Shown: positions 14,387-62,741, counted from the stretch's first letter. The stretch is DNA of 64,000 bases from an uncultured Candidatus Saccharibacteria bacterium (GCA_964385105.1 CAYLMU010000001.1:130252-194251), one strand, 5' to 3'. Made by a program: numbers and translations. The notes: generated by a model from the letters alone, not told the origin.

Positions 14387-14648
14387 TTTAATCCTTTCTA
14401 CATGGTTGGGGAACAAAAAAGCGCCCGAAACCACGCATAAATTAATACTTATGTATGGTTTCAGACGCTCTATACAGATTACTGTCAGATGAGCTCCGTC
14501 TACTTTAGGTAGATCTGCTTCTGAAACGATTTATTTAGTTGTAGGGGGATTATAGCAGAGAGGCGTATTATTGTAAACCTATAGTAGGATATGTTATAGA
14601 TAAGCTTTTGAAAGTGTGTATTTGTCAACCTGTAGTATATACCAGCTA

Positions 14649-15385: not shown

Positions 15386-15576
15386 TAGTGCTAGCACCAG
15401 AGCGGTTCCAAATACTACTTGTAATACCCACGACTTTTCTCCTTGTATTGGTGGGAACTCCCACTACTTTTGTCAAATGGGAATATTTTATTATATTGGC
15501 TTAAGTATGTTAACCTATAGTCTGTGTGTACCCTGCGGGTACCCGTCACTGTAAAACTCGCTATGCTCGTTAACAT

Positions 15577-23948: not shown

Positions 23949-24051
23949 GTAACTCTCCTTTTTTGTATGTGGGGTTTGTAAACATTTGGGAGTATATATT
24001 AATGCGTGCAATTCTGCAACCTATAGTAACAAATGTGCGTCTGAACGATGA

Positions 24052-35462: not shown

Positions 35463-36113
35463 GTGTATATTCTAGCTATGATTATTGTAAAAGGAAATAA
35501 AAGTGAAGAAATGAACAAATCTCAGTTGACTAGTGTAATTGATGCTTTCAAAAATGTTCATGTAGATATTGGTACAGGTGACGGCAGATTTATATATAAA
35601 AATGCACTTAAAAACCCTGAAACTTTTTATATTGGTGTTGATCCAAGTCAAAAACAACTTGAGCTGTATTCAAAAAAAGTTCTGAAAAATAAATTGAATA
35701 ATGTGCTTTTTGTAGTTGGTTCAATTGAGCTTTTTCCTGATGAACTTTACGGTATTGCGAGTAAAATAACAATAATTTTGCCGTGGGGGAGTTTACTTGG
35801 TGCGGTTGTTAGTGCAGATGAATATTTGCTTAATATACTAAAAAAAACTTTAAAGCAAAACGGGTCGATGCAGATGCTATTTGGGTATTCGCAAGAAATA
35901 GAGCCTACTGAAACATCCAGGCTTGAATTGGAAAATCTTGATATAAATTATATAAACTCAATTTTATTGCCAAAATATGAGGTTAACGGATTTAACTGCG
36001 TACAAGTCAAAGAATTAGATAAAAGAGATTTAAAACATTTTGAATCAACATGGAGCAGGAAACTGGTTTTCGGTCAAAATCGTCCCATGTTTTTGGTAGA
36101 GTTTACCATTTAA
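35463..36113 (+). CDS. TrmB-like class I SAM-dependent methyltransferase (tRNA m7G46 MTase-like)
   Basis: VHVDIGTGDGRFIYKNALKNPETFYIGVD closely parallels the TrmB motif ...GTGKGQF...NP..NYIGIE. Confidence 0.5.
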   Translation: MYILAMIIVKGNKSEEMNKSQLTSVIDAFKNVHVDIGTGDGRFIYKNALKNPETFYIGVDPSQKQLELYSKKVLKNKLNNVLFVVGSIELFPDELYGIASKITIILPWGSLLGAVVSADEYLLNILKKTLKQNGSMQMLFGYSQEIEPTETSRLELENLDINYINSILLPKYEVNGFNCVQVKELDKRDLKHFESTWSRKLVFGQNRPMFLVEFTI

Positions 36114-38061: not shown

Positions 38062-38138
38062 CGGGGTGTGGCGCAGTTGGCTAGCGCGTTCGCATGGGGT
38101 GCGAGAGGTCGCAGGTTCAAGTCCTGTCACCCCGACCA
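38062..38138 (+). tRNA. tRNA-Pro (anticodon GGG)
   Basis: CGGGGTGTGGCGCAGTTGGCTAGCGCGTTCGCATGGGGTGCGAGAGGTCGCAGGTTCAAGTCCTGTCACCCCGACCA. Confidence 0.8.
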
Positions 38139-38145
38139 GGATAGT

Positions 38146-38174
38146 TGACACAGCAACAAACTTGTCTTAACATT
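38146..38174 (+). promoter_or_regulatory. sigma70-like promoter TTGACA-N17-TAACAT immediately after tRNA-Pro
   Basis: Consensus -35, 17-nt spacer. Transcript would run to the terminator at 38301-38324 (~140 nt). Confidence 0.4.
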
Positions 38175-38300
38175 TACTCACTATGCCAAGTAAAAGCATA
38201 AACAGACATCACTATAGGTGGCATGTTAGGACGTTACCAAGCGGGTCTGTTGAGTTGATGCTTATTTCATAATAGTAAAAACAAAACATATTTTTTAAAC

Positions 38301-38324
38301 AAACCCGCTTCGGCGGGTTTTTTT
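38301..38324 (+). terminator. intrinsic terminator cccgc-UUCG-gcggg + T7
   Basis: aaacccgcttcggcgggttttttt. Confidence 0.7.
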
Positions 38325-38338
38325 GTACCTTGAAAATT

Positions 38339-38395
38339 CTATCCTTTAGAACAAGTAGCACTTCAAAATTGGAGTTCTACTTCACTCTAAAGGAT
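38339..38395 (+). repeat. 57-nt imperfect hairpin (11-bp perfect IR TATCCTTTAGA/TCTAAAGGATA) in the 5' leader of the 479-aa ORF
   Basis: Outer 11-bp inverted repeat plus inner AAGTAG/CTACTT stem. RBS aaggagaa follows. Confidence 0.5.
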
Positions 38396-38423
38396 AACAG
38401 TTTAAACACACAAGGAGAAAAGA

Positions 38424-39863
38424 ATGTTTAATGTAACGCGGTTTAATGATTTTGAAAGTACAGAGGTGACACAACAACTATTTAACCGAGGCATCCGTTA
38501 TTTGATAGATCCGTCAAAAGGTAATTACTATCAAGATGTACCGTCATTCCCAAATATGCCAAGAGTTTATACCCCGAATTTCGTTGGTTACGATGGTCGT
38601 GTGCGTGCTACAACTATGCCTTTAAGCGGCATTGTTGAGTATGATCCGCTTTTGATTGACGAATTTAGTTTGGGATTACAGATGTATCTTAAGTTTGCAC
38701 ATGCATTTGTGAATACGGATGCAACTCGAAACCTGCTGCTCGCCAATTTATCCCGACCAACTGCTGAAAAGATTGAATTGTATTTACAAGAGCGTATTGA
38801 GTTGAAAAAGGGAACAGTAACACGTATTGATGCGGTTCCCGTGGGTCGTAGGCTTGCGTCTGTTGATACAAACTATCTTCCTCTTGGCTTGGCAAACCAG
38901 CTTGTTGCACAATCTGTTGTAAATGGTTGTTTAACTCACGGCGCCTGGATACATTTATCCGATCTTGCTGAGTTGGGTAATCACAGTGGTATTGTCACGC
39001 AGCTTACTTATCCGGGTTGGATGGCTCATGCAGTTATCGCGGATATGGTTAGTAAGTTTGGTGTAGATTTCTATGTAATTCCTTATGAGTTGCTTGAAGG
39101 TGACGGAAGTGTAGATGGAAAAAAGTTACAGTTGTTCTATGAACAGCTTTATTCAGTTCTTCCTATATCCACGCGAAAAATTCCTGACAAAAAGTTTACT
39201 CCACCCGGAATAGTTCGTTGTTGCCGGGAAAAACTCACTCAAAGTCCCACTACTCAAGTTGTAAACCCTTTTGGGCAGTACTCGCTAGACAGTCACATCT
39301 TAACAACAATGCCCTTTGTTCCGGGAATTGATGAGTTTATGAAAAATGTTGGTTTTGTTGGGAATTTTGATGTGGTCCGGGCTTCTCATATGCCTGGCAC
39401 CGTCGCAAGGCACACTGAAGGATTGGTGGAAATTGCCGTTGGTATAGAATACAGCGCCGGCGAAACCAAATTCATCTGGTCATCAGGAAATCAGGCGGTA
39501 AGTCTTTTGTTGCAAATTCAGCAACTTGCGGGAATAGACCCTGAGGCAAAAAACACTTGGTATGTAAAAAATGCCGGAAGTACTGGCAAAAAAGGTATTA
39601 TGAGTATTGGTAAAAGCCAATCTGCAGGGTTGCTTGAAAAAGCAAGCGGTAAAGTTGCTTCAATGTTTCCCGATGGTGAAATCTTCACGCTGCAGCCTCA
39701 CGTGCACTTCAAAGTTAGCACTGAACCAGAAGTTCGCCGGGGTAAATTTGAAGCTTACTTTACGGGGCCTGACATGTATCCGATTGGAAGCTTTCTTATG
39801 ACGACGCAACTTAACTCACTGTTTGTGCATGGAGGAAGTTCTACTGATTTGTACTTGGGCTAG
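38424..39863 (+). CDS. hypothetical protein (479 aa), GC-elevated single-gene cassette
   Basis: Strong RBS AAGGAGAA, flanked by large hairpins (38339-38395 and 39883-39929), composition richer in GC than neighbours. Confidence 0.55.
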   Translation: MFNVTRFNDFESTEVTQQLFNRGIRYLIDPSKGNYYQDVPSFPNMPRVYTPNFVGYDGRVRATTMPLSGIVEYDPLLIDEFSLGLQMYLKFAHAFVNTDATRNLLLANLSRPTAEKIELYLQERIELKKGTVTRIDAVPVGRRLASVDTNYLPLGLANQLVAQSVVNGCLTHGAWIHLSDLAELGNHSGIVTQLTYPGWMAHAVIADMVSKFGVDFYVIPYELLEGDGSVDGKKLQLFYEQLYSVLPISTRKIPDKKFTPPGIVRCCREKLTQSPTTQVVNPFGQYSLDSHILTTMPFVPGIDEFMKNVGFVGNFDVVRASHMPGTVARHTEGLVEIAVGIEYSAGETKFIWSSGNQAVSLLLQIQQLAGIDPEAKNTWYVKNAGSTGKKGIMSIGKSQSAGLLEKASGKVASMFPDGEIFTLQPHVHFKVSTEPEVRRGKFEAYFTGPDMYPIGSFLMTTQLNSLFVHGGSSTDLYLG

Positions 39864-39956
39864 ACTGTTATTCTTAGAACCGAGGTGTAGCTATGTGTTG
39901 AGTTAACACTCTTCACTGGTTACACCTCAGCCCGCATAGTAATATTATAAAAAAGT

Positions 39957-41078
39957 ATGATAAATATCAAAGAAGAGCTTAATGCTCTAGTCTCTATTCC
40001 CTCATACGGTGCTGGAGACTTAAAAAAAGAAAATAGAATATGCGAATACCTAAGTGTTTACATAAAAAACAATCTTTCGGATCTAACTATTAGATACAAT
40101 GAAACTAAAGATGGAATAAGAACGCTTGTAGCACTTGGTTCAGACAATCCTGAAATACTTCTTGCTTGTCATATGGATACGGTGCCTCCTTCAAACAGTT
40201 CGCAGCTTAGTCTTTCGGTGCAAGGAGATAAGGCTTTTGGTTTAGGGACAAAGGATATGAAAGGTGGTATTGTAGCAAGCTTGCTGGCTTTAGAAGGGTT
40301 GCAGGATCTAAAAAAAGCTGGACTTGTTTTTTACAGTGATGAGGAGTACGAGCAAAAAGGGATGTTATGTGCGGTTGAATTTCTTAAAGACGAGCTGAAA
40401 ATAAAGCCTAAATTAATAATTTCACCAGAATCACGGTTTAACATTGGGTATGGTGCCAGAGGCATAATTGTGTTGACCATGAAAGTAACAGGAAAAAAAG
40501 CGCACTCGGCCAGACCTCACCTAGGAATCGATGCAATTGACGCAACTTATAAAATACTTCAAAAGCTAAAGGATGAATTTTCTGAATATGAGTCCCAGCT
40601 TGGATACACCACTTTTACCTTATCTTTTATTTCGGGTGGGTCTTTGATGAATGATTCTACAGTAGAAGATTTGCCCGGGAGCATCCCGGATGTATGCTTA
40701 TCTACAATTTCGGTTAGAAATGCAAACAAAAAACTTAACTCGAAGAATCTAAGCTCATATATCATAAAAATAGCAAAAGAGCTAAATGTGGAAGTTGAAC
40801 TAAAAGTGCAAACTGACCATCCTGTAAGAGAAACAGACATTTTGCTGGTAAACAAACTGAGGGCAATTGCTAAACAAAAAGCAGGTTTTGATTTAGAACT
40901 TGGAGACCCAAAGCTTGCAGGCTACAACGACGCTGCAATATTGGCACAAGCCATGGATGTACCTGTTATAAATTTTGGGCCATATGGTGAAGATAATCAC
41001 ACTCAAAACGAATGGGTGAGTTTAAACAGTATCAAAGACACAGCCAATGTTTTGAGGTTGTGGATTGAAAATTTCTAA
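39957..41078 (+). CDS. M20-family metallopeptidase (ArgE/DapE-like)
   Basis: LACHMDTVPP, GTKDMKGG, DEEYE metal-ligand pattern. Confidence 0.75.
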   Translation: MINIKEELNALVSIPSYGAGDLKKENRICEYLSVYIKNNLSDLTIRYNETKDGIRTLVALGSDNPEILLACHMDTVPPSNSSQLSLSVQGDKAFGLGTKDMKGGIVASLLALEGLQDLKKAGLVFYSDEEYEQKGMLCAVEFLKDELKIKPKLIISPESRFNIGYGARGIIVLTMKVTGKKAHSARPHLGIDAIDATYKILQKLKDEFSEYESQLGYTTFTLSFISGGSLMNDSTVEDLPGSIPDVCLSTISVRNANKKLNSKNLSSYIIKIAKELNVEVELKVQTDHPVRETDILLVNKLRAIAKQKAGFDLELGDPKLAGYNDAAILAQAMDVPVINFGPYGEDNHTQNEWVSLNSIKDTANVLRLWIENF

Positions 41079-42111: not shown

Positions 42112-42801
42112 ATGTTGAAGCGTTCATACATGGTTGTGCTTGTTATTGTTGCTTTGTGTGCATTTAGTTTGATTTCGACGAGTCAAGTGCGGAGTACAGA
42201 GACCGAAGAAGAGGAATATGGAGTTATTGAGCTTTGGGCATGTCAAGATGATGATGAAAATCAAATGTGCTTGAGTTCAGATGATTCCTATATTGACGGT
42301 GTTTTAGGATGTTTAGTTTACCCGGATGGGAGTGAAAGCTGTCGTACAACCGAAGATGGTTTTTACTTCTGGGATGTACCGATTGATGCGGTTTACACAT
42401 TATATGTGAACGATTCACAATCTCCTCCGGGCATGTATTTGGATTCTGTGTTGTGCCATACTTACCCTGGAGAGGAGTATAATCTTTGTACATATCAACG
42501 TACAGTTGAGGGTTTACAAGCGGAAATAACCTTTGATGGTGTTGAGAATGGGATTCAGGTCAGCTTTGTGTTTAAGCCCATAGCAAATGCAACCCCAACT
42601 CCTATAATCACACCGACACCATCAGCGACGCTCAATTCCACGGCCAGTCCCACATCCACGGCAAGCGTCACCAACACACCAACAGCAACATCAACGCAAA
42701 TGCCCACAGCGACGCTCCCAGCAAGTACCGTAGCACCTTCACCTACGTCAACTTTGGAACATAGGCTGTTTAGGTATTTTTTACCAACCACGTTTCGTTA
42801 A
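42112..42801 (+). CDS. secreted Cys-containing protein with Thr/Pro/Ser-rich C-terminal tail; GC-elevated
   Basis: Signal peptide, 8 Cys, TPTPIITPTPSATLNSTASPTSTASVTNTPTATSTQ low-complexity tail. Promoter TTCGTT-N16-TATAAT upstream. Confidence 0.55.
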   Translation: MLKRSYMVVLVIVALCAFSLISTSQVRSTETEEEEYGVIELWACQDDDENQMCLSSDDSYIDGVLGCLVYPDGSESCRTTEDGFYFWDVPIDAVYTLYVNDSQSPPGMYLDSVLCHTYPGEEYNLCTYQRTVEGLQAEITFDGVENGIQVSFVFKPIANATPTPIITPTPSATLNSTASPTSTASVTNTPTATSTQMPTATLPASTVAPSPTSTLEHRLFRYFLPTTFR

Positions 42802-44102: not shown

Positions 44103-44684
44103 TCAGGTAGATTTTTTATCAAAAAGCAAAACGCCAAACACTGAACCCAAAAATCCACCCACAGTAGACATAGCCAAATCACCTATAGTATCGTTGTATG
44201 ATAAGTGTAGTCCGCTTACATACCCCATGCCATCAACCGAAACAACCCATTCAGCTACTTCCCAAATCACAATTAGTAAAGCTCCAAGACTTACTCCAAA
44301 TAAGACATTTTCTTTTTTTGACAAGCCAATCGAAGAGTTGATATTTTTTTGAAATCTAAATGCATGAAATGCCATAACCACAAAAACCCAGTTTACCGCA
44401 TGTATAACGTCATCAAATATAGTAATTCTGTCGAATAAGCCAAATAAATTACCTAGTGTATCAAGCAAAAAAGGAATTGTAATTAATGCATCAGTAGCAT
44501 GAGGATAAGTTTTCCAGTTTTTCACACGGCTCAATATAGGAAAAAGTACAATAATTCCCAAAAAAAACGGAGCTCTAAACTCCATGCCCTTACCCGATAA
44601 ATGATCAAAATCAAACAAAAAAACAATTATAAAACACACAAGTAAACCAAGTTTAAGAGCTATATTTAAATTTTTATAATTCAT
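44103..44684 (-). CDS. polytopic membrane protein (YjdF/DUF2238-like)
   Basis: Multiple TM. Weak family resemblance. Confidence 0.35.
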   Translation of the reverse strand: MNYKNLNIALKLGLLVCFIIVFLFDFDHLSGKGMEFRAPFFLGIIVLFPILSRVKNWKTYPHATDALITIPFLLDTLGNLFGLFDRITIFDDVIHAVNWVFVVMAFHAFRFQKNINSSIGLSKKENVLFGVSLGALLIVIWEVAEWVVSVDGMGYVSGLHLSYNDTIGDLAMSTVGGFLGSVFGVLLFDKKST

Positions 44685-44702: not shown

Positions 44703-46436
44703 TTATGGGTTATTACAGTAAACCCCCACGACCGGGTTTTTACCTAAAATACTATAAATCGGTGAAAAATACTCTTTTTTAATAAATATGTCATCACGAT
44801 GTTGTGAAACCGGTTCAACCCCCGGAACAGTAGTATTACCAAAAATCCTGGGATTTGTTATATATTTGTTTATCGTGCGGCTATTCTCAAATCTGTGTAA
44901 AACTTTGTATAAAAAGTTTCCCTCGCCTTCAACTATGTAGTGGTGTACAAAGCATTCGTACGCAAGAGCGCCTGGTACTTTTTCATCAATTTGGGACGGA
45001 TGATTAAATCTGTTTGTGTGCATAAATCTGGTGAAAGTACCGTCAACAAAAATATTGGTAACAAGATTTCTTTCTATTTGCATTTGTTTGGCTAACTCCC
45101 ACTTTATGTCGAGCTTGCGGTAATAGTCAGTTGTTAACAAAATAGTTATAACCGGCAAAATAATTAAACCACCAAAACCTATGTAGTATTGTTTTGCGGT
45201 TAGTTTGGGAGTCTTTATGCCCACAAATAAAATGCTAAGGGCAAAAAAGTTAATTAAATACCTGTCGTAAAATTCCGCAGTCGCTAATGCAACGGCAATT
45301 ACCATACCAAGCATTCCTAGTGAGCATAACAAAATTGTTAATGCCGGTCGGGTAGTATTTTTGAAAAGGGAAGACAGCATATGTAATAATCCAAAAGACA
45401 TCATGCTTGCATAAAAGCTTAAAAATAGTTTAAAGGGAATATTGTCAAAAATGTGAATATAATGAACAAAATTGCTTTTTCCGTATAATTCTTCAATATA
45501 AAAGACATTTCCTATTGGAAAAATATCGGCATTGTACACAGGTATAAATGAAATTAAAGCCCCGAGTAAAAGAATTAGCAGAGTTTTTTTGTTCAGGGTA
45601 GCCCAATGAGTAATTATGAATGGTGATAGAAAAAAGCCGGTATAAGTTAAAATGTAAGGGAAGAGCCGTATTGTGCTAATTACTCCGCTTCTATCTGAAT
45701 TCATGATTTTTTCTGGTAAAACCATATTGCCACTTTGAGGCCATGTTGAAGATATAATTATGGCAATTGCAAAAGGTGTAATTAACCTGATTAATGAGTT
45801 AAATTTAAGTGTTTTTGTGCCGTTTAAATAAAGTGCATTAAGGTATACGGGTAGAAGAACAAGTCCAAATTGTCTAATGAGTAAACTTGCACTACCCAAA
45901 ATTCCTGCGTATAGCAGTGTGTTGTGATTTTTTTGAAGCATAAATTTAATAAAAAAATATAAACTCCAAATACAAAAAGTTAAGAAGTAAATTTCGGTCA
46001 TAAAAGTTAGTGATGAGTTGTACAAAAGGGGGTTAAATGCTGTTGTTAACAACACAAGTGCCACAATACCATCGGTTTTATTTAGAGCTTTCAAAATTTT
46101 AAAAATTCCAAACAAAAAGCCTATAAAAAAGATAATGGTTAGAATTCTTAAATTTAAAAAACTTAAACCAAAAATTCTCGCCCATGCTGCACCTATAAGC
46201 CCTTGAAGTATAAATTCAGCATCAGTAAACGAACTTTTTTGATATATGCCATTTAAAAAAAATCTAGTGTTGAGAAAAAAATCCCAGTCATCGTTTATTG
46301 AATATTCGCCAAATGGCCAAACAAATAAAAGTGACAGAAAGTAAAATCCTATAGTTACAATGAAAGGCCACGATTTAAAATGTTTTATGTTCATGTGAGC
46401 TGTTTTATTATACAAAAATAGATTCATAGCCCACAT
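44703..46436 (-). CDS. GT-C fold membrane glycosyltransferase (ArnT/PMT-like, GT39/GT83)
   Basis: ~12 TM. First extracytoplasmic loop has INDDWDFF (DE-like motif). Confidence 0.6.
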   Translation of the reverse strand: MWAMNLFLYNKTAHMNIKHFKSWPFIVTIGFYFLSLLFVWPFGEYSINDDWDFFLNTRFFLNGIYQKSSFTDAEFILQGLIGAAWARIFGLSFLNLRILTIIFFIGFLFGIFKILKALNKTDGIVALVLLTTAFNPLLYNSSLTFMTEIYFLTFCIWSLYFFIKFMLQKNHNTLLYAGILGSASLLIRQFGLVLLPVYLNALYLNGTKTLKFNSLIRLITPFAIAIIISSTWPQSGNMVLPEKIMNSDRSGVISTIRLFPYILTYTGFFLSPFIITHWATLNKKTLLILLLGALISFIPVYNADIFPIGNVFYIEELYGKSNFVHYIHIFDNIPFKLFLSFYASMMSFGLLHMLSSLFKNTTRPALTILLCSLGMLGMVIAVALATAEFYDRYLINFFALSILFVGIKTPKLTAKQYYIGFGGLIILPVITILLTTDYYRKLDIKWELAKQMQIERNLVTNIFVDGTFTRFMHTNRFNHPSQIDEKVPGALAYECFVHHYIVEGEGNFLYKVLHRFENSRTINKYITNPRIFGNTTVPGVEPVSQHRDDIFIKKEYFSPIYSILGKNPVVGVYCNNP

Positions 46437-54363: not shown

Positions 54364-54392
54364 ATTATACCCTATAGTATGTTCGAGTGCAA
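54364..54392 (-). promoter_or_regulatory. sigma70-like promoter TTGCAC-N17-TATAAT with ACTATAGG motif abutting the -10
   Basis: Minus-strand reading: TTGCAC tcgaacat ACTATAGG g TATAAT. Confidence 0.5.
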
Positions 54393-57847: not shown

Positions 57848-58282
57848 ATGGGTTTTTTTGTTATAGTAAATACAATGAACCATATGAACAAGCGCCTCCT
57901 AATTTTATCTATAATAACAGCTTTTTCTACTATGTTATATTTTTACAGCCAGCAAAAAGAAATCTTAGAATTAAAATTTGCAAAAGATATACTTTCATTT
58001 AGTGTTATTTTTTATTGTATTTGGACTATAGCAGGAGTAATTTTTAATGAACTTCAGTTCAATAGTAAAGAAATTGCAGTATTAACAACTTTCTTTGTAA
58101 TGAACTTTTTGTGGTATGCTGCCGGTGAGTGGTCTGCTCTACTCTTTTTGTCTTTGCCAGTGCAGTTTTTTGGGATTGTTTCACTAAAGGTGTTTATGCG
58201 GTTTGTTGAGTCTTATACGTTGGGTGGGGTGCATATGGTGGAAGAAAACGGCTCAGAAGTGGAAAAACAGATAATCCTATAG
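57848..58282 (+). CDS. hypothetical membrane protein
   Basis: 4 TM. Confidence 0.4.
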   Translation: MGFFVIVNTMNHMNKRLLILSIITAFSTMLYFYSQQKEILELKFAKDILSFSVIFYCIWTIAGVIFNELQFNSKEIAVLTTFFVMNFLWYAAGEWSALLFLSLPVQFFGIVSLKVFMRFVESYTLGGVHMVEENGSEVEKQIIL

Positions 58283-58365
58283 TTTACGAAATGCCATAAA
58301 TATAGTAGAATACTTCAAGATTTATAGATATCCGTAGTTTCTACGTCAAACAAGGAGAGAATGAG

Positions 58366-62712: not shown

Positions 62713-62741
62713 TTTACACAATCCTATAGTTTTGCTAAAAT
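62713..62741 (+). promoter_or_regulatory. sigma70-like promoter TTTACA-N17-TAAAAT with CCTATAGT in spacer; leaderless start at 62750
   Basis: Perfectly spaced hexamers. ATG 8 nt after the -10. Confidence 0.5.

Follow-up and report, generated by a model that had tools for sequence, protein, structure and literature searches.

Classical amino-acid attenuators have tandem or multiple control codons in their leader peptides, a single control codon being unusual. To our knowledge, very little is known about gene regulation and amino-acid sensing in genome-reduced bacteria similar to those of the candidate phyla radiation (CPR). Attenuators with a leaderless leader peptide are known in Actinobacteria and Deinococcus (PMC3890552, bioRxiv 10.1101/834739, PMC4007540, PMC10272879). 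The Staphylococcus aureus hmrA/ldmS genes, which code for an M20D peptidase and an ATP-grasp L-amino-acid ligase, are under the control of CodY/CymR or an S-box riboswitch (PMC9486568). We have analyzed a locus which may be compared with these systems. It is found in a stretch of 64,000 nucleotides (nt), here called the window, from an uncultured Candidatus Saccharibacteria bacterium (GCA_964385105.1, CAYLMU010000001.1:130252-194251). It contains a promoter, a short open reading frame (ORF), a terminator, a gene for a predicted ATP-grasp ligase of 479 amino acids (aa) and a gene for an M20 metallopeptidase, all of them on the + strand. The reading that we favour, with chances somewhat better than even, is that this operon is controlled by transcription attenuation through a leaderless leader peptide. 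Ribosome-mediated attenuation in general appears probable.

The leader has been compared in at least 13 loci and the gene pair in 14 distinct loci (the window, L002, L005, L006, L007, L009, L011, L012, L013, L014, L016, L018, L019 and L020). Dinucleotide shuffles were used as the null model for the leader ORFs, and the energies of folds and duplexes have also been compared with shuffles. A raw MAFFT alignment of the leaders is not structure-aware: RNAalifold recovered from it the terminator and part of the apex hairpin only. We have therefore relied on statistics for each locus.

The Leader Region

A sigma-70-type promoter (38145-38173) begins 7 nt after a tRNA-Pro(GGG) gene. It has a -35 hexamer TTGACA (38145-38150), a 17 nt spacer and a -10 hexamer TAACAT (38168-38173), which agree with the consensus in 10 of 12 positions. 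An AUG codon 9 nt past the -10 hexamer opens a leader ORF of 29 codons (MPSKSINRHHYRWHVRTLPSGSVELMLIS, 38183-38272), presumably translated, whose lone Trp codon is at 38219-38221. Region 1 (AACAGAC, 38201-38207) lies inside this ORF, at leader codons 6-9, and would be the 5' strand of the anti-antiterminator: both minimum free energy (MFE) folds and a duplex search pair it with GUCUGUU of region 2. Between both strands there is an inner hairpin, GGUGGC...GUUACC (38217-38238), which forms the apex of the 1:2 structure and includes the in-frame UGG. Region 2 (AAGCGGGUCUGUU, 38239-38251), the putative antiterminator strand, is complementary to region 3 (AACAAACCCGCUU, 38298-38310), which consists of the terminator's 5' strand plus the bases which directly precede it. 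The intrinsic terminator itself is AAACCCGC-UUCG-GCGGGUUU (38301-38320, -13.7 kcal/mol, z -3.0), with a U-tract to 38324. Its 3' strand, GCGGGUUU, is region 4.

A first-pass annotation, made from the sequence of the window, had already noticed the promoter, one nucleotide downstream (38146-38174), and the terminator with its UUCG loop (38301-38324); both are real and have counterparts in 13 loci. It had also suggested a small RNA. A terminated leader RNA of about 145 nt is indeed predicted, but a cis-acting attenuator, with this RNA as its terminated product, is the better reading. By analogy with rnTrpL of Sinorhizobium, a terminated leader with a role in trans (PMC6614838), this RNA may also act in trans, which would be compatible with the other readings.

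The layout is the same in all the leaders compared. Each of the 13 has a TTGACA-like -35 and a -10 hexamer at the equivalent place, and 7-13 nt past the latter an ATG (GTG in L014) opens an ORF of 16-40 codons. When we ask for a start codon 7-13 nt past the -10 hexamer, at least 16 codons and a stop ahead of the terminator, every locus passes, while shuffles pass in 2.5-6.8% of cases for each locus, an expectation of 0.54 in 13. The ORF is probably leaderless or nearly so, with transcription starting at or next to the AUG. In some loci region 2 is contained in the 3' part of the ORF, and in the others it starts 0-9 nt past the stop codon.

The best duplex of regions 2 and 3 has energies from -13.0 to -22.6 kcal/mol in the 13 loci, with z between -2.6 and -5.3, and no more than 1% of shuffles equal it at any of them. 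For the window, RNAduplex gives -17.5 kcal/mol (z -5.3, none of 300 shuffles as good). The core of the duplex varies by locus: GCGGG/CCCGC, GGGAGG/CCUCCC, AGGAGG/CCUCCU, GGUGAGAG/CUCUCACC, UUGGGAGU/ACUCCCAA, GUGAGAG/CUCUCAC and GGGAGU/ACUCCC. Since the core sequence changes between loci, both strands covary. In the window subclade, the extension past the terminator stem also covaries (UCUGUU/AACAAA in the window, UACCUU/AAGGUA in L006, GAC.GU/ACGUC in L011). In most loci, MFE folding yields the extended 1:2 hairpin, which reaches z values of -2.7 to -5.1 in six of them. L006 and L011 are the closest relatives of the window. Their ligases are only about 30% identical to that of the window, yet their leaders have several nucleotide blocks in common with it: TATCA.AGGTGGCAT, AAGCGGG, GCGGGTTTTTTTGTACCTTGAAAA and CCTTTGGAG...CTCTAAAGGA.

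These elements would work as follows. Transcription from the promoter 3' of the tRNA-Pro gene would begin almost directly with the AUG of the leader ORF. The transcript could adopt two mutually exclusive folds. In fold A, regions 1 and 2 would form the extended hairpin, which holds the Trp codon close to its apex, and the terminator would form from regions 3 and 4, which gives the short RNA. In fold B, region 2 would pair with region 3 as an antiterminator, and RNA polymerase would continue. An unimpeded ribosome would cover region 2, or be just past it, as region 3 emerges; 3:4 pairing would then form and the terminated RNA would be released. A ribosome stalled upstream would melt region 1 and leave region 2 free, so that 2:3 pairing forms and the operon is read. 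Without any ribosome the 1:2 hairpin would form, and termination would be favoured. Stalling would be likeliest at the Trp codon, which is conserved and precedes region 2 by 17 nt. With the antiterminator formed, the ATP-grasp ligase would be expressed together with a deacylase of the ArgE/DapE type of M20 peptidases.

Some observations weigh against this proposal. The transcription start, the termination and the translation of the leader are all predictions from sequence. In the window, the 1:2 pairing is no better than in shuffles (z -1.2 to -1.7), and the same is found in several relatives. Two distant members of the family, L020 and L002, do not have a recognizable leader of this type. Finally, the conditions used for the leader ORF were set after the data had been seen, and common descent links the 13 loci; the P values of the leader are therefore optimistic and should be taken as upper-bound impressions, not as exact figures.

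A switch which does not depend on translation has also been considered. A metabolite (in a riboswitch), a protein or a tRNA might bind the leader and stabilize one of its two structures, 1:2 or antiterminator, and the short ORFs would then be incidental. Platforms made of a terminator and an antiterminator are typical of riboswitches, and the translation of the ORF is one of the predictions mentioned above. The stems of the apex hairpin show compensatory changes (for example UUAGCC/GGCUAA, UUACC/GGUAA, CCGCU/AGCGG and CCUCUU/AAGAGG), and UUAUUUGG is conserved in its loop or on its 3' side. Nevertheless, we think such a switch quite improbable. Start codons at the expected place and ORFs open up to region 2 in all 13 loci are hard to obtain by chance, and the reading frame is kept: in all six loci in which the ORF reads through region 2, GGAGG is read as GGA GGN, and UGG is in frame although its distance to the AUG ranges from 30 to 66 nt. 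Outside the paired strands, the two subclades have hardly any conserved nucleotides in common from which a ligand pocket could be built. When Rfam 15 was searched with the window and 13 related loci, only tRNAs reached the gathering score, so the Rfam check proposed in the first-pass annotation gave no family for the leader, T-box included; relaxed matches on 38100-38460 are all far under the gathering score and driven by the terminator. A T-box would need a longer leader than this one, which has about 110-130 nt ahead of the terminator.

Control of the T-box or TRAP type was also considered and rejected: there is no Rfam match, the leader is too short and it has no array of (G/U)AG repeats. 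Two other candidate elements have been discarded. A conserved stem AUGCCA/UGGCAU does not hold, its 5' copy being the -10 hexamer in L006, and L011 does not have it. A second small ORF starting at a UUG in the U-tract (YLEN.I...) does not hold either: its spacing to the next conserved block differs between loci by non-multiples of three.

In the other subclade, the ligase starts 1-19 nt past the U-tract, and nothing ahead of this start resembles a Shine-Dalgarno (SD) sequence except the terminator's 3' strand, GGAGG. For this reason, the same switch could gate the translation of the ligase in that subclade as well. A second terminator-like hairpin, GAAACC...GGUUUC followed by UUUUU, is found in L011 (370-405), between the leader terminator and the ligase start.

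Leader Peptides and the Trp Codon

Exactly one Trp is found in 12 of the 13 leader peptides. It is their most enriched residue, with three times its background frequency of 1.2%; for independent loci, P would be about 6e-7. In nine of these 12 peptides the distance from UGG to region 2 is 11-19 nt. Other shared features are two motifs, [FL]I.W[GSA] and KY..W[HY], and a strong depletion in Asp, Glu, Pro and Ala, with Asp and Glu at 0.1-0.2 times background. The products of L012, L013 and L016 are hydrophobic peptides of 32-40 aa.

A conserved Trp codon, its enrichment and a spacing similar to that of Escherichia coli trpL lead us to prefer the supply of Trp-tRNA as the signal. We propose its shortage only tentatively, as a possible stall signal which is less likely than not. 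No tandem control codons are found in the 13 peptides, only the single Trp codon, and L013 does not have even this one. In three loci the Trp codon is 23-34 nt away from region 2. UGG lies in conserved stem or loop positions, so a constraint on the RNA could explain part of its conservation. Moreover, we know of no link between tryptophan and the downstream genes.

The same leader could respond to a different stall signal: general translation stress, a ribosome-targeting antibiotic or nascent-peptide arrest, as in leaders of the erm, bmrCD, vmlR or msrD type. In such a case, the ligase and the deacylase would be part of a stress or resistance response. All the evidence on the architecture of the leader would be equally explained, and so would the single Trp codon, the absence of codon runs and the L013 peptide without Trp. 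The hydrophobic and aromatic motifs could act in the exit tunnel, and the depletion in Asp, Glu, Pro and Ala also fits. On the other hand, the distance from motif to stop codon varies from 1 to 17 codons, more than an arrest at termination with a fixed geometry would easily allow, and no resistance-type function is known for pairs of a glutathione synthetase (GSS)-like ATP-grasp enzyme and an ArgE/DapE-type enzyme. We regard this explanation as unlikely, though worth keeping in mind.

It might also be thought that the short ORF codes for a functional peptide. The ligase might modify it as a ribosomally made precursor, which the M20 enzyme would then trim, or it might be a small membrane protein; in this view, the terminator would mainly set the ratio of precursor to enzyme. 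The ORF is directly upstream of an ATP-grasp gene in 13 loci, aromatic motifs are conserved, some products are hydrophobic as mentioned above, and terminators after precursor genes are common in peptide-modification clusters. Against this, the length and C-termini of the peptides are dictated by RNA pairing and poorly conserved, and simple leaky termination does not need a conserved strong antiterminator. Known ATP-grasp macrocyclizations require the Asp and Glu residues in which these peptides are so poor, and a precursor of the graspetide type is unlikely for the same reason. Enzymes of the GSS/GspS fold class have small molecules as substrates, and the known graspetide ligases are found in a different branch of the ATP-grasp superfamily. 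A functional peptide appears very improbable to us. There is also a slim chance that the leader ORF plays a double role, as a sensor and, through its aromatic peptide, as a substrate or partner of the ligase and the M20 enzyme. If so, it would be a minimal ribosomal-peptide modification system in ultrasmall bacteria, with a precursor gene that attenuates its own modifying enzymes.

The Ligase Family

The attenuator would control a gene of an unannotated family. The 479 aa ORF (38424-39863, ATG at 38424) is preceded by an SD sequence, AAGGAG (38412-38417), 6 nt ahead of the ATG, the strong ribosome-binding site of the first-pass annotation. It has no match in Pfam, NCBIfam, PHROGs or PDB sequences. 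A word-index search of 5.8 billion proteins returned only the query itself, and an alignment-based run only two proteins. An exhaustive HMMER search of 1.84 billion cluster representatives finds 17 relatives (18 proteins with the query, E <= 1e-3). In the resulting family, 16 proteins are listed at E <= 1e-10. The relatives are 21-33% identical, most of them with 470-520 aa. A Pfam scan of all 18 proteins does not find any domain. Their alignment contains invariant Lys, Arg, Asp, Asn and Glu columns, among them K382, K389, D148 and N150, and several motifs: R.D...CDPN.PLG, GIVT..YPNW.SH, (I/V)RY.RE, VVN.PG.R..ES, W.VK..(S/T)SGKKGV, F.LQP.I.S and HGGS.T. The metagenome scan was made with a narrowed alignment.

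Structure prediction gives a much clearer picture. From the single sequence the mean predicted local distance difference test (pLDDT) is 31, while the alignment of 18 sequences raises it to 91.7, with a predicted template modelling score (pTM) of 0.91. This model was compared with PDB by Foldseek, as the first-pass annotation had proposed. The top matches are 2hgs and 8fbz (E about 1e-9 to 6.5e-10, TM score about 0.52, probability 1.00), and the matches include human, plant, yeast and nematode glutathione synthetases. They are followed by E. coli glutathionylspermidine synthetase (GspS, 2io7), YjfC (7uk6), YgiC (7uk8), the structural-genomics entries 3n6x and 3k1t, the E-64 ligase Cp1B (9cjn) and trypanothione synthetase (TryS). 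All 29 matches at E <= 0.005 belong to the GSS/GspS ATP-grasp structural class, lower ones having a probability of at most 0.12. Identity with these structures is about 10%. From these matches we conclude that the protein is predicted to be an amide ligase with an ATP-grasp fold, of the GSS/GspS structural class. The first-pass annotation had considered either a capsid-like protein or an enzymatic novelty. The fold rules out the former, and an unannotated ATP-grasp ligase family agrees with the latter.

Sequence comparison does not confirm this assignment, which is a point against it. No significant match to any ATP-grasp model, those of Pfam included, has been detected, and the profile of the family has no relevant match among PDB sequences. 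A comparison with E. coli YgiC by hhalign is not significant (probability 0.8%, E 0.07), and neither is the sole stretch which it aligns, W.VK..GKKGV with YVVKP..GANV. Since there is no support at the sequence level, we describe these proteins as what they appear to be from sequence and model together, a new sequence family in the known ATP-grasp superfamily.

The Gene Pair and Its Surroundings

The partner gene (39957-41078) starts after a gap of 93 nt. It codes for an M20 metallopeptidase (PF01546, Peptidase_M20, E 1.2e-22) with the dimerization domain PF07687 (E 4.7e-13). The best NCBIfam model is TIGR01910, with 134.8 bits, under its cut-off of 217.6. As all the curated cut-offs are above the scores obtained, the gene is judged by sequence to be closest to ArgE/DapE deacylases and no equivalog can be assigned.

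In all loci with enough downstream DNA, the 14 distinct loci mentioned above, the ligase homologue is directly followed by the M20 homologue. Their stop and start codons often overlap. The ligases are 22-30% identical to that of the window and the M20 homologues 40-52%. A GTDB scan with the M20 protein returned only M20 genes with 40% identity. In a Moraniibacteriota locus (L003) an M20 gene is present without ligase or leader. The ligase and the deacylase may make and cleave the same small amide or peptide.

Some loci contain other related genes. In L013 a second, longer M20 paralogue (440 aa, 746-2068) is directly upstream of the leader. In L005 (9551-14090) the operon continues after the ligase and M20 genes with a 333 aa unknown protein, a 511 aa protein and a GATase/Peptidase_C26 gene. 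The 511 aa protein has a faint match to GCS2 (glutamate-cysteine ligase family 2, E 0.055), a weak hint that the ligase might take part in gamma-glutamyl-peptide chemistry. L005, L014/L015, L017, L018 and L019 form a subclade with conserved synteny: trigger factor, DUF5660, leader, ligase, M20 and a protein of 331-345 aa, which has no Pfam domain and shows faint matches to nSTAND3.

On the upstream side the neighbours vary. In the window they are the tRNA-Pro gene (38062-38138, found by ARAGORN and Rfam), which lies outside the conserved module, and an Nramp gene; in the subclade just described they are DUF5660 and trigger factor, and in other cases an M20 paralogue, an M29 peptidase or an Asp/Asn-tRNA ligase. 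The first-pass annotation had read the locus as an expression cassette recently inserted at tRNA-Pro, with hairpins similar to attC or to miniature inverted-repeat transposable elements (MITE) as borders. The module is, in fact, directly 3' of the tRNA, different lineages carry it in different neighbourhoods, and two strong hairpins flank the ligase ORF. Both hairpins exist, at 38340-38396 instead of 38339-38395 and at 39882-39929 instead of 39883-39929. The elevated GC content is also real, but mild: compared with the 41 window ORFs of at least 200 aa, the ligase has GC 0.426 and 0.360 at third positions (GC3), versus 0.358 +/- 0.033 and 0.288 +/- 0.035, about two standard deviations above the mean (rank 3 of 41).

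The cassette does not withstand comparison with the relatives. Leader, ligase and M20 are conserved without an adjacent tRNA-Pro: this adjacency is unique to the window, and no tRNA is found directly upstream elsewhere. The 3' end of the tRNA is not duplicated anywhere in the window. The 5' and 3' hairpins are unrelated in sequence, and both have positional counterparts only in L006 and L011. The hairpin arm has three matches versus 1.9 expected, two of them being the hairpin itself, so there is no excess over chance. As for the 3' hairpin, the ligase gene precedes it and the conserved M20 gene comes next, which places it within the operon and not at its edge. No integrase or transposase is present from LeuRS (32.4 kb) to about 48.5 kb (some -6 to +10 kb), where the neighbours are housekeeping genes, and IMG/VR does not contain any relative of the ligase protein or of the leader motif. 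We consider an inserted cassette hardly credible. As judged from sequence conservation, leader, ligase and M20 are a conserved two-gene operon with its own leader. An independent Logan assembly (L001) of the same sequence breaks inside tRNA-Pro (about 38110), 314 nt before the ligase ATG; this is probably a break of the assembly graph at the tRNA and not evidence of a junction.

Other Features of the Window

Several elements, which belong to the subclade of the window only, are found between the terminator and the M20 gene. The block GUACCUUGAAAA (38325-38336) directly follows the U-tract. In a general form, GUACYUUGAMAA, it is also found after the U-tract in L006 (445-456), L011 and L013, and about 80 nt further in L012. 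MFE folds pair it with the SD of the ligase in four of five loci, around the long hairpin, and GUACCUUGAAAA may act as an anti-SD; the energy of this duplex alone (z -0.2 to -1.4) is not distinguishable from chance. The long stem-loop (38340-38396) has about 23 base pairs (bp), with a perfect base of 11 bp (arms 38340-38350 and 38386-38396), and is very stable (-25.8 kcal/mol, z -8.4, none of 200 shuffles as good). Its counterparts in L006 and L011 have a conserved base, CCUUUGGAGCA/UGCUCUAAAGG, and a variable interior. We may speculate that it plays a role in processing or stability, for example as an RNase III site which separates the anti-SD from the SD, or in translational control. The intercistronic hairpin (39882-39929) does not have a U-tract, and the intergenic region which contains it folds with -29.7 kcal/mol (z -5.0). 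L006 and L011 have a hairpin with a different sequence at the same place (GGACAUAGG.../...CCUAUGUCC). A role in setting the ratio of both proteins is a speculation of the same kind.

The octamer ACTATAGG, noticed by the first-pass annotation in the leader (38211-38218), is found there and at ten other places in the window: 151-158, 6225-6232, 14578-14585, 15514-15521, 24020-24027, 44182-44189, 46348-46355, 54371-54378, 58276-58283 and 62723-62730. Only 1.5 copies would be expected, and no shuffle reaches 11. Nine of the 11 copies are on the minus strand, most are intergenic, and several have a hexamer similar to a -10 box directly after them (ACTATAGGGTATAAT and ACTATAGGTTAACAT are two examples). 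The leaders of L006 and L011 do not keep the octamer at the equivalent position. It looks like a genome-specific motif, either associated with promoters or acting as an operator.

Two other genes on the + strand should be mentioned. Between truB and the Nramp gene there is a homologue (35463-36113) of the NpmA family of 16S rRNA (adenine1408-N1) methyltransferases (PF24675, E 1.8e-53), which we take to be an aminoglycoside-resistance type of enzyme. A 229 aa ORF (42112-42801) has the highest GC in the window (0.441). It has no match in Pfam or NCBIfam, and weak matches in PHROGs include an endolysin family.

Comparison with Known Systems

An undescribed ORF beside a tRNA thus becomes a defined, testable unit, a ligase family tied to an M20 deacylase. 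What the predicted leader would control is a new sequence family of a known enzyme superfamily, through a known kind of regulation. The host is probably a genome-reduced, CPR-like bacterium, as judged from a contig of 468,751 bp with about 36% GC, the nearest M20 match in GTDB, which is in a Candidatus Moraniibacteriota genome, and the presence of DUF5660/DUF5665 genes beside the module in relatives. If the proposal is true, and if these organisms are genome-reduced and CPR-like, such bacteria use ribosome-coupled attenuation. The regulatory codon would then be a handle for guessing the function of the enzyme pair. Resources such as Pfam and Rfam would gain one new protein family and one new cis-regulatory leader.

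The closest parallel in architecture is the E. coli trp attenuator. Both have a short promoter-proximal ORF with region 1 inside it, an antiterminator strand just past or inside the end of the ORF and a terminator directly before the first structural gene. With the same script, E. coli trpL gives distances of 13 and 16 nt from its Trp codons to region 2, within the 11-19 nt found in most of our loci, 1 nt from stop codon to region 2 and a comparable 2:3 energy (-13.4 kcal/mol). There is no sequence similarity, and the differences are clear: one Trp codon instead of two, a leader ORF which is predicted to be leaderless and has no SD, genes for a ligase and a deacylase instead of tryptophan biosynthesis and, in one subclade, a terminator whose 3' strand doubles as the SD of the ligase.

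In the position of the ORF, our leaders are more similar to the trp, ilv and leu leaders of Corynebacterium and to the mycobacterial short ORFs with poly-Cys, where the regulatory ORF is at or next to the transcription start, as predicted here. The leaders of Actinobacteria and Deinococcus carry runs of the sensed codon, unlike ours, and both lineage and target operon are different. Our leader has no sequence relation to any described leader.

As for the ligase, its predicted fold is similar over its full length (TM about 0.5) to those of glutathione synthetase, GspS, YgiC, YjfC and Cp1B, and in the YgiC alignment, which is not significant, VK...GKKGV sits where YgiC has VVKP...GANV. It differs from the GSS/GspS group in its sequence, with about 10% identity and no match in Pfam, NCBIfam or PDB, and in not having an amidase domain.

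The S. aureus hmrA/ldmS pair differs from ours in several respects. Its genes are in the opposite order, its ligase LdmS belongs to the classical L-amino-acid ligases and is not GSS-like, and the peptidase is of the M20D type, while ours is similar to ArgE/DapE. Regulation is carried out there by proteins or a riboswitch, and by a leader peptide in our proposal. Nevertheless, in both cases an ATP-grasp ligase and an M20 hydrolase form a two-gene operon, and the 5' region of hmrA/ldmS responds to amino acids, as our leader would do.

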